From: Anolis carolinensis | Taxonomy: Eukaryota | Reading direction: 5' to 3' | Assembly: GCF_035594765.1 (NCBI RefSeq) | Contig: NC_085841.1 | Span: 246,594,689-246,658,688 of the forward strand | Length of the DNA: 64,000 nt | In this document: in pieces, positions 7,224 through 24,786 of the stretch | How the letters are laid out: every line of letters begins with the position of its first letter | Numbering within the stretch: the first letter of the stretch is position 1 | Position numbers and translations under genes: made by a program | The notes under the pieces: generated by a model | What the model saw: the letters and a program-made list of their open reading frames with translations, nothing else | What the model was told of the DNA's origin: nothing | The model's database searches: none

Positions 7224-8709
7224 TGTTGTGAATGCGCCTTCGGAGACTGTGAATGATAGTGGTGGGATCAGGAGAGGAAGGAAAAACCCTCGTGAGGAGG
7301 GCTCGTTGGAGGATTTGTTTAGGAAAAGCATCAGGGAGACTGATGGGGAGTCTTCTGAGGAGGATTCATGTGGGGATCCTGAGGTGGAAATGGATGCTGG
7401 GGAACAGGTGTTAATGGAGGAATTGGGTACAGACTGGGCACGGGCACCGGAGATGCTTGGGGATGAATCGGAGTCCATGGATACTGCTGATGCTGGAGAA
7501 GCTTGGGTGTCTTCAAACGCAGATCCCACTTGGTCTGCTTGGAGGAGTGAGAGGGGGTCCACAGGTATGGATAGAGTTGGGCATGGGCAGGATGACTGGG
7601 ACTCTGATGAGGAATTCGGAACACTTGACCCAAGGGCATTGGCTGTGTGGAGTTCTGATTCAGATTAAGAAGTTGAGACACCTGCTCTTTGAGCGTGGAT
7701 AGTTTGGAAGCCCAGGGAGACCTGGATATATTGGGGTTGTTTGGCCATTATACCTTGTGTGTGGCAAGGTGTTGCTGGGCACCATTGGATTTCTTGTGTG
7801 TGTTACTGAAGACTGGACTTGGACTTTGCAATGGATGTAAGTTTAATCTGGGTTATTCTGCAACGGAGAGCTGGAATTGTGTGGGTTTTCCTGGATTGCA
7901 CTGTTATTACTATTTTGTATTAGCTGCTGTTAGCCCTCGTTGCTTTGGCTCTCTGTGCCATTTCATGTTGTGACCTTCTTGGATGACTTCAACCTCTCGG
8001 ACCTTGGACTGGTACTTGACTCAGCTTTGCTCTTCGCTCTCAATCCGTGGCTTGGTGTCGTTCTCTATTCCGTGGCTGTCTGCTGTTGCTGACTATTACC
8101 TTCACTCCTGATACCGACGCTGTCTGCTTATCCCGACTTTGGACTGGCTTGACGACATTCTCCCGCTCTGCTCCTTTAACTCCTGGCTTGGCGTTTGCTT
8201 CTGCAGCAGCTTGGCGCTGCTGGTTTATCCCGACTTCGGACCGGCTTGAAGACGCTTTCCCGCTCTGCTCCTTTAACTCTTGGTTTGGTGTATGTTCCAG
8301 CAGCGGTTGCTGCGAACTCGCCAGCATCTCGCTGTTTTGCTGGCTTTGCTGCTCTCAACTGGGAGTTCCCTAGCTCAGTTTGGGCATTTGTTTGTTTTGA
8401 ACTCCTATTTGTACTTTAGAGTTTTGGGAAAGGTTTGTGGGCTTCAATACTACTTACTTTAGTTCATGCCTCCGTTTTTCAGCCCATTGTGAACTTTTGG
8501 GTCAAGTTCTAGAACTTTAAATTTAACCTGGATTTAACTCTAATCCGGATTATTTGCCAGTTCTTGTTTTTTGGGGTTTTACCCGCTTGTTCTACTTAAT
8601 AGCACTGAAAGTTAAGTGTTTTAAGTCTTTTTAGTTTGTTGAGCTATTTTTTGGACTGTTGCTTTAATAAACTCTATTTTGCTCTCTAATTGGCATCTGA
8701 CTTTTGACA
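7224..8709 (+). mobile_element. Solo LTR (1486 bp), LTR retrotransposon, probably Ty3/Gypsy
   Basis: Begins TGTTGTG, ends TTGACA; exact 5-bp TSD GTTTG at 7219-7223 and 8710-8714; AATAAA at 8666-8671; internal ~97-bp direct repeat at 8128 and 8225. Confidence 0.85.
7228..7668 (+). CDS. LTR-borne acidic ORF (146 aa, GTG start; frame open from LTR nt 2)
   Basis: ORF track; D/E-rich with basic patches RRGRKNPR and RKSIR; lies at the very 5' end of the solo LTR. Confidence 0.4.
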   Translation: MNAPSETVNDSGGIRRGRKNPREEGSLEDLFRKSIRETDGESSEEDSCGDPEVEMDAGEQVLMEELGTDWARAPEMLGDESESMDTADAGEAWVSSNADPTWSAWRSERGSTGMDRVGHGQDDWDSDEEFGTLDPRALAVWSSDSD

Positions 8710-22986: not shown

Positions 22987-23757
22987 ATACACACACACAC
23001 ATTATGCAGGGACTATATATTATATATATACACAGTATATATCACACACACACCAATTTAACAAAGTTTCAGCCACAAAAACAAAGTTTCTGAAGTAGAA
23101 CAATGACTTTCACAGTAAAGACAACCCAATTTAACAGGAAATAAGACTTTCAAACCAGGAACAGATTTCTGCAATTATTAAAAAATGGTTTATTATAAAA
23201 GCTATGAAAATTTGCCAAAAATCAGAGGATAGGGGAAACGTTCCAAATTTTGGTGAGCTATCAGTTTTAAATGTGTTCTACCACTGTACCAAGTTGGAAG
23301 AAGATCACTCAAAAAGTGAGGGTGGGAGAGTCCTGTAAAGTCCTCTCCCTCTGTGCTGTTTTTGGGAATTGCGTATGCGCGTCCGCCATTAACGAATTAA
23401 TTTAGAAAATAACGAATTTTCGTTAATTTCGAAAATTTTGGGGGGCCAAATTCGTAAATAGCAACAAAAACGAAAAACTGCCCCCTCTAGTTTTGAAACG
23501 AGTTTAGAATCAAATTTTTCATGGATCGATCAAGCCTACTCAACATGTGTAAGTAAGCTGATAGCACTGAGACATGGCAGTTAGTGGTGTCAAATTGAAT
23601 TAATTCTACAGTGTGGATGTACTCACAGTTTTATTATTTGTTTATTTATCCCTCCTGGTCTTCAGGAAAAAGCTAAAGACCTGGCTCTGTGCACACGCAT
23701 TCAGGGAGTAGGATAATATGGAATTGGACCTCAACCTATCAATCAAATAATGCCTAT

Positions 23758-24682
23758 TGTGATGACTCATGGGCCATGTAGTCCCGTTCCCAGCACTGTT
23801 GAGACAGATGAAGAGGAAAACTTAGGTTTCCCACCGTTTCAGCCAGAATTGGAGCTTTTTCAGCCAGAATTGGAGCCCTTGCACCTGCAGGAGATTTGCC
23901 TTCCAGAAGTCTGCCAAACAAGCCTTGAGCCGAAATCTCCCCCATTTTCTCACCGTGATTATTATAAACAACAGAAAGGCGCTCAGGAGGCGTCTCGCAG
24001 GAGCGCTAGGATTGCTGCCAGGCATTCAGCTGATTAAGCCTGCTTCCCATGGGAAACTTTAGGGAGTCATGCATCTGGACACAGAGAAGGGCTTTCGGTT
24101 CTGGTTCCCCAGAGAATTGTTCTTTGGCGGGGAAACGAGACCCTATTTAGTTGTTTTGCCCACGTAGGAATCTTGCGGAGTCAATTCGTCAGCTTCGGGA
24201 GTAGGTTGTGTGTGGACTACGCTACTCCCGCGTCCTTTGCTCCCGTTTCCAGCCTTGCCTTGCTTCCCAGGACCTTGCCTTGCTCCACGGACCTTGCCTT
24301 GCCTTCCGGACCTCGCCACGTATTTGCCACGGATCCTGTTCTTGCTCCTCGTTTCTTGTTGCCTTGAATTAAGCCTAGTGTTCCAGGAATCAAGTTTACT
24401 TCCTAGTCTTGCTTAAGCTTCATGGACTAAAGGACCTTGTCATCTCCCCTCACTTTGCTTGGCAAAGTGAGTGTTTCGGTTACTGGATTACAACTTTGGA
24501 CCTTAATATTTCATATTGGACATTGTTTCTTTGGACTAATTTTGACCTTTCCTGAAAGGTCTACTTCTGGACTATTTTCTACACTTGTTTTTATTAACTT
24601 TATATATTTCCACAATAAAGATATTAGATAGATTCTGGCCTCTGTGTATGGTTATTGGTGCTCTGCAGCCTGGGTCCTGACA
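23758..24682 (+). mobile_element. Solo LTR (925 bp), probably Ty3/Gypsy
   Basis: TGTGATG..CCTGACA; exact 5-bp TSD CCTAT at 23753-23757 and 24683-24687; AATAAA at 24614-24619; homologous to 43853-44781. Confidence 0.92.
23762..24037 (+). CDS. LTR-encoded 91-aa acidic peptide ending in RRSARIAAR (intact frame)
   Basis: ATG at LTR nt 5; collinear homolog at 43857-44132 with synonymous codon differences. Confidence 0.55.
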   Translation: MTHGPCSPVPSTVETDEEENLGFPPFQPELELFQPELEPLHLQEICLPEVCQTSLEPKSPPFSHRDYYKQQKGAQEASRRSARIAARHSAD

Positions 24683-24786
24683 CCTATAGGAAAATCAAGA
24701 AGAATGGAACTCATGACTCAGCGCTTTGTATGTTTTTAATCTGTTTTATTGTATTTATATGTTTTAACTGTTTATATGTTTTAACT

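Follow-up and report, generated by a model that had tools for sequence, protein, structure and literature searches.

Coding sequence that overlaps the U3 region of an LTR is known from retroviruses, in which HIV nef and MMTV sag are separate genes, and the foamy virus Gag protein is a viral chromatin tether that places a short arginine peptide on nucleosomes. For LTR retrotransposons, the closest described layout is that of the plant CRM group A, in which the polyprotein frame runs into the 3′ LTR and a putative targeting segment is located there, according to the available text of two reports (PMC3059260, PMC3605345). The Tf1/Sushi group has been described as self-priming, the PBS pairing with the 5′ end of the mRNA (accessible parts of PMC4600332 and PMC6317226).

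Among nucleosome-binding proteins, the HMGN sequence RRSARLSA and the Dsup sequence RRSSRLT bind the acidic patch through an arginine anchored at H2A E61/D90/E92, together with an additional contact to H2B Q47 (available text of PMC12487698). Yeast Dot5 binds the acidic patch through RRSARIAT, with R6, R7 and R10 needed for nucleosome binding, and KSHV LANA, a viral chromatin tether, is named in the accessible portion of the same source (PMC13347269).

Two solo LTRs and their parent element

The window, i.e. the whole analyzed stretch of 64,000 nucleotides from Anolis carolinensis, contains two solo LTRs, each flanked by a 5-bp TSD. The following features were assigned to them:

23758..24682, + strand: solo LTR copy 1, subfamily S1; TG...CA; TSD CCTAT at 23753-23757 and 24683-24687
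23762..24037, + strand: U3 frame of copy 1, C-terminal tail of Pol; 91 codons plus stop, open from LTR nt 2
23837..23878, + strand: 21-bp tandem duplication, in frame, common to the copy 1 subfamily
23996..24019, + strand: motif RRSARIAA, copy 1 tail residues 79-86; HMGN/Dot5-like, predicted acidic-patch binder
24144..24149, + strand: TATA-like hexamer TATTTA, located upstream of the putative transcript start by about 31 nt; deduced from the sequence
24175..24184, + strand: self-primer 10-mer of copy 1, complementary to the PBS that full-length elements carry; putative transcript 5′ end and U3/R border
24614..24619, + strand: AATAAA polyadenylation signal of copy 1, LTR nt 857
43853..44781, + strand: solo LTR copy 2, subfamily S4; TG...CA; TSD CATGA at 43848-43852 and 44782-44786
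43857..44132, + strand: Pol-tail frame of copy 2; 91 codons plus stop, interrupted by TGA at 43986-43988
44091..44114, + strand: motif RKSARLAA of copy 2, as read in the sequence
44279..44288, + strand: self-primer 10-mer of copy 2, located by the PBS complement search

The two ORFs of 91 codons plus stop, with one internal TGA in copy 2, were found exactly as the initial annotation had described them, and its ungapped comparison of the copies, with 29 of 91 identities of which 14 are encoded by different codons, was reproduced. The differences between the two tails at codon positions 1, 2 and 3 numbered 50, 42 and 61, respectively. The internal TGA (codon 44) is private to copy 2, the codon being open in all the remaining 29 of the 30 DNA relatives closest to it. 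In the DNA alignment of both copies the best match lies at the LTR's 3′ end, and all 40 scored DNA matches of the copy 1 LTR in the genome showed 99-100% identity. The copy 1 tail has an acidic start, followed by a disordered Pro/Ser/Glu spacer and a basic end. Its length equals that of copy 2 by coincidence, as had been suspected, since the tails of the subfamilies comprise 84, 86, 90, 91 or 96 codons; equal length was therefore dropped as a signal. The 21-bp duplication, previously ascribed to copy 1, exists but is common to its subfamily.

Both solo LTRs belong to a young Ty3/gypsy chromovirus group. A full-length element of 6.3 kb with LTRs of 930 nt (L031) contains, according to Pfam, gag with a zinc knuckle, followed by PR, RT, RNase H, IN, SH3 and a chromodomain. 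The part from PR to the chromodomain is encoded in a single frame of 1370 codons from stop to stop with the tail at its end, and the chromodomain (PF00385, E 4.5e-9) occupies codons 1204-1252. It aligns with HP1, and its F/W/F residues stand opposite the Y/W/F positions that we take to form the HP1 aromatic cage; the aromatics are kept, and on this assumption the cage was called intact.

The family is characterized by TG...CA LTRs, a PPT and a 5-bp TSD, and by its structure, rather than by RT phylogeny, the element fits the Tf1/Sushi group. The 5′ and 3′ LTRs are 99.1-100% identical in 14 of the 16 full-length copies and 97.2-97.6% identical in two copies of the copy 2 group; with this range of 97.2-100% the family was recently active. 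A pattern for the PPT/LTR junction resulted in 3,790 exact matches in the genome and in none with the reversed control. At one locus (L028/L029, C2:229683304-229694364) three LTR matches lie about 5.4 kb apart, apparently as tandem elements with common LTRs.

Directly downstream of the 5′ LTR, a perfect 10-nt complement of an LTR-internal site could be identified in 15 of the 16 full-length copies, and a complement of only 7 nt in the remaining one. The internal site is located at LTR nt 401-425 in 11 of the 16; four S2 copies have an equally long complement at LTR nt 321, likewise downstream of the ORF stop. The self-primer 10-mer is present in 222 of 237 full LTRs. Transcription would start at about LTR nt 418, approximately 140 nt downstream of the ORF stop (nt 280). 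Since this putative start lies beyond the stop, the LTR's own promoter could not express the ORF, which would be present only at the 3′ end of the genomic RNA, before the AATAAA. CCTTG repeats occur just downstream of the putative start in both copies (24253-24310 and 44362-44427), and that of copy 2 has grown into a pure microsatellite.

Fusion to Pol and selection on the tail

The search of the genome with the copy 1 peptide gave 150 scored matches, several of which are located inside open frames of about 1370 codons. In ten of ten copies, chosen for their long open frames, pol stays open as far as the LTR junction and across it. Chromodomain and tail share one frame through the terminal motif in 29 of 30 junctions (the first by genomic position among the PPT-junction matches), the sole failing one having a rearranged LTR, and the PPT itself forms codons of the pol frame. 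Junctions of the copy 2 type have the same phase, with 331-963 open codons upstream in L055/L090, L074, L109 and L120; in L079 and L047 stops were found shortly upstream of the junction. A database search with a tail profile, covering longer proteins only, yielded six matches, all from A. carolinensis and all with an integrase or chromodomain. In UniRef, the tails are present, unlabelled, at the end of predicted Anolis Pol proteins of 1,211-1,212 aa.

The initial annotation had offered two alternatives, a stand-alone microprotein and a C-terminal Pol tail whose frame is read across the PPT into the 3′ LTR. The recovered full-length elements, in which the pol frame runs through the chromodomain and crosses the PPT in phase into the tail, establish the latter and speak against the former. 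The tail would be translated only from the 3′ LTR of the genomic RNA and would stay attached to the integrase.

For the analysis of selection, natural copies were grouped into 35 clusters at 96.5% identity, of which S22, S24 and S26 (false regex matches) and five truncated or frameshifted single copies were left out. The main estimate is based on one natural copy from each of ten clusters with at least four members, private differences being masked. NG86 was saturated at synonymous sites between the two main groups, so that a tree-based codon model (GY) was used instead. For the Pol frame (90 codons, ten subfamilies), omega was determined to be 0.34 (LRT 55.7 against omega = 1, p 9e-14), under a single-tree model that is violated by mosaicism between lineages. 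The values for two subgroups were 0.32 (p 1e-8) and 0.41 (p 4e-4), and omission of the attachment-site codons changed the estimate little (0.35).

The controls were near or above 1, with 1.1-1.8 for the shifted and reverse frames of the tail (shifted frames 1.5-1.6) and 0.77-1.26, none significant, for the remaining LTR read as pseudo-codons. The purifying selection on a protein that the initial annotation had proposed is thus confirmed by the comparison of the tail with the rest of the LTR across subfamilies, one of the checks it had suggested. Indel lengths, another of these checks, agree: in DNA-only alignments between subfamilies, all 3 gaps in the tail have lengths divisible by three, compared with 8 of 40 elsewhere in the LTR. 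Within subfamilies, 0 shared indels other than multiples of three were counted in 2,778 nt of tail and 41 in 6,370 nt elsewhere; these biased counts were not relied on, since tail similarity had served to select many of the copies and a microsatellite lies in the remainder of the LTR.

Constraint varies along the tail. Omega was 0.37 for the acidic start, 0.65 for the middle spacer (p 0.14, not distinguishable from neutral), 0.21 for the SP.F block and 0.24 for the basic end, giving 0.21-0.24 for the last 35 codons. In 14 junction copies the values were 0.10 (IN core), 0.18 (SH3), 0.10 (chromodomain), 0.44 (PPT linker) and 0.36 (tail), i.e. the constraint on the tail is weaker than that on the IN core or the chromodomain. 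In 103 of 105 non-independent pairs, the tail shows more synonymous divergence (pS) than IN, and the pN of the tail reaches 0.41.

In some pairs (S2-S10, S7-S28) the divergence is confined to a few hundred bases of U3. Similarly, L164 and L200 as well as L199 and L204 are about 99% identical in the integrase and the distal LTR and differ by 11-13% only in LTR nt 100-400. These sequences suggest that U3/tail segments may have been exchanged between lineages.

Private variants were analyzed in 27 non-junction copies of family 2 picked by DNA. The 16 synonymous and 36 non-synonymous changes and 3 stops are close to the 14.0, 39.2 and 1.8 expected (pN/pS 0.83); family 1 provided only 8 private variants. 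As the private variants are neutral in these solo or 5′ copies, selection acted in the replicating lineages, and the copies in the window are relics. Solo LTRs would merely inherit the frame and then decay neutrally.

Terminal motif and rival explanations

The tail ends in R[RK]SxR[IL], in which position 4 is free. Among 238 copies with tails of intact length, the first R and the S were identified in 237 each and the second R in 236, encoded by several different codons; position 2 is K in 47 copies. In 26 of the 27 clusters carrying it, the motif begins 13 codons before the stop, and its shuffle probability was 2e-4 in a post hoc test. The copy 1 sequence RRSARIAA matches RRSARIAT of Dot5 at seven of eight residues. 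In-phase fusion, selection and motif conservation identify a real, selected Pol tail inside U3, of which we are practically certain.

In the AF2 model the chromodomain is folded, residues 64-138 are disordered (mostly pLDDT <50), and a terminal helix of 27 residues holds the motif (pLDDT 60-72), in contrast to HMGN and Dsup, for which a short segment was observed. A complex model of tail residues 56-91 with H2A and H2B of this genome reached 0.78, compared with 0.23 for the best of three controls. The runs agreed in no fewer than 89% of contacts, with a partner pLDDT of 60 or more. The calibration of this mark (51 of 78 solved versus 2 of 108 mismatched microbial pairs; 39 of 65 versus 2 of 126 eukaryotic pairs) was made on sets free of peptides and disordered chains. 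The modelled contacts are H2A E61, E64 and D90 and H2B Q47, E105 and H109 (mature numbering), with tail R83 at H2A E61 and R79 at H2B Q47; H2A E92 was not among the confident contacts. The program may have reached the mark by having memorized solved complexes with HMGN or Dsup, and the model is taken to support the likeness to acidic-patch motifs, not binding.

The tail is predicted to be a nucleosome tether, a reading to which we assign a probability of roughly 0.6. The disordered spacer would, on balance, let the motif reach H2A-H2B while the chromodomain with its F/W/F cage reads methylated H3, and such a grip on nucleosomes would likely help the element to dock on chromatin. Points against a tether on the integrase are the helical AF2 model, the requirement of Dot5 for R7 where the 47 tails mentioned above carry K, and a possible removal of the tail by the protease.

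The selection is also compatible with a Pol/integrase tail whose basic end serves nuclear import or DNA binding, or forms a helix that binds a non-histone partner or the integrase itself. The helix over the last 27 residues in the AF2 model would fit such an amphipathic helix, and a tether leaves unexplained the SP.F and H-G-P blocks, whose conservation equals that of the motif (omega 0.21 and 0.37, invariant columns). With respect to import, the classical NLS consensus is K-K/R-x-K/R, to which the motif does not conform. For CRM integrases, NLSs are reported in the available text of PMC3605345. The invariant R1, S3 and R5 with a free position 4 correspond to the HMGN/Dsup/Dot5 pattern, and the complex model places the motif on the acidic patch; in view of both, another purpose of the basic end appears possible but rather doubtful.

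It could further be assumed that Pol simply lost its stop and that selection keeps only a soluble, harmless and stop-free extension. This would suit the near-neutral spacer and a tail that evolves faster than any other coding part (pN up to 0.41), but it is very unlikely given the omega of 0.21-0.24 in the last 35 codons, the invariance of the motif residues across different codons and the fixed distance between motif and stop; the segment-wise omega values largely refute it. Hardly credible is a stand-alone protein in the manner of nef or sag, made from the nt-5 ATG of the LTRs or of a spliced RNA. This ATG is indeed nearly invariant (M1 in 16 of 16; another codon in one copy, L099), and the Anolis gene models P0005, P0007 and P0055 end in the tail. 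However, this ATG belongs to the terminal TGTGATG integrase-attachment end, and in full-length copies the open frame extends upstream of it. The stand-alone protein was rejected on account of the fusion to Pol, the putative promoter downstream of the ORF and the neutral private variants of the 27 family 2 copies, although it might conceivably come from a spliced sub-genomic RNA.

Distribution and comparison with known systems

At the sequence level, homologues of the tail were found in the databases for Anolis only, every named match being from A. carolinensis. Pfam assigned 0 families to the tail alone, and the ESM Atlas search with it gave no usable match. The motif was absent from all 85 stretches (at least 40 aa) downstream of single-chromodomain matches, many of them gene-model chimeras, and is therefore not general. 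In proteins of Rhineura, Podarcis, Salvator and Crotalus, acidic extensions follow the chromodomain behind a comparable junction (SVM, GVM or SVV), and in two of these four squamate proteins the extension has a basic end. This hints that read-through may be more widespread.

The literature searched gave neither a description of the tail nor one of an HMGN-like motif on a retrotransposon integrase, Repbase reports and most subscription papers lying outside this search, and the available text of PMC3601003 and PMC11011659 does not mention the tail. Pol running into the 3′ LTR with a putative targeting motif is already known from plant CRM; for the candidate HMGN-like integrase tether no precedent was found in this literature.

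Predicted host gene models (P0005, P0007, P0055; one P-type ATPase) end in the LTR tail. They are probably annotation chimeras, exonisation of the motif being possible. The Pol-tail frame explains Anolis gene models with this LTR as last exon.

A third solo LTR of the window (7224-8709, TSD GTTTG) is apparently unrelated to copies 1 and 2. It contains an acidic open frame of about 147 codons from LTR nt 2, in the phase of the Pol tail and with no ATG near its start. Among 150 scored relatives (86-93% identity; protein-picked and biased), most have this frame open. A full-length parent of this family was searched for in the genome and not found. Copies of the third LTR (L257:6272-7834, L258) adjoin a long C2H2 zinc-finger array, and the unit of LTR and array is repeated on three contigs (C18, C19, C26).

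Few tethers are known by which Ty3/gypsy integrases choose and hold chromatin, and the tail represents a short, evolutionarily validated candidate. U3 is protein-coding and selected in a vertebrate LTR family that is large and was recently active; this bears on LTR annotation and on the use of LTRs as neutral clocks.

Compared with the Tf1/Sushi group (V-clade), the element shares the gypsy domain order, the chromodomain, the 5-bp TSD and a PBS complementary to its own LTR (available text of PMC6317226 and PMC4600332), but differs in the selected extension of 84-96 codons into U3. The R-x-S-x-R core in a disordered context and the predicted contacts to H2A E61/D90 and H2B Q47, as in Dsup, are similar to HMGN, Dsup and Dot5. 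In contrast to these, the lizard motif stands at the C-terminus of the polyprotein of a transposon; its position 2 is K in some subfamilies, and binding is so far a prediction. With nef and sag the tail has the coding sequence in U3 in common, and with LANA and foamy virus Gag the short arginine peptide holding nucleosomes; nef and sag are genes of their own, whereas the tail is fused to Pol, without sign of an own transcript.

The layout is most similar to CRM group A, likewise a chromovirus with a Pol frame into the 3′ LTR, a putative targeting segment there and the LTR start TGATG, as far as the available CRM text describes it. In CRM, however, the CR motif replaces the chromodomain, whereas the lizard element has an HP1-like chromodomain upstream of the PPT, to which the tail is added. 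The hosts are plants on the one side and a vertebrate on the other, with putative self-priming in the lizard element, and the likeness described here is one of layout. With its canonical chromodomain and its database matches in Anolis, the element is not a member of CRM group A; the layout is common to both. There is about an even chance that the integrase would grip nucleosomes at two points, by the chromodomain and by an acidic-patch arginine anchor in an exchangeable, HMGN-mimicking tail encoded in U3. Such a tail would have provided thousands of solo LTRs with the frame of a preformed nucleosome-binding peptide and would be the vertebrate counterpart, by convergence, of the CR motif in plants.
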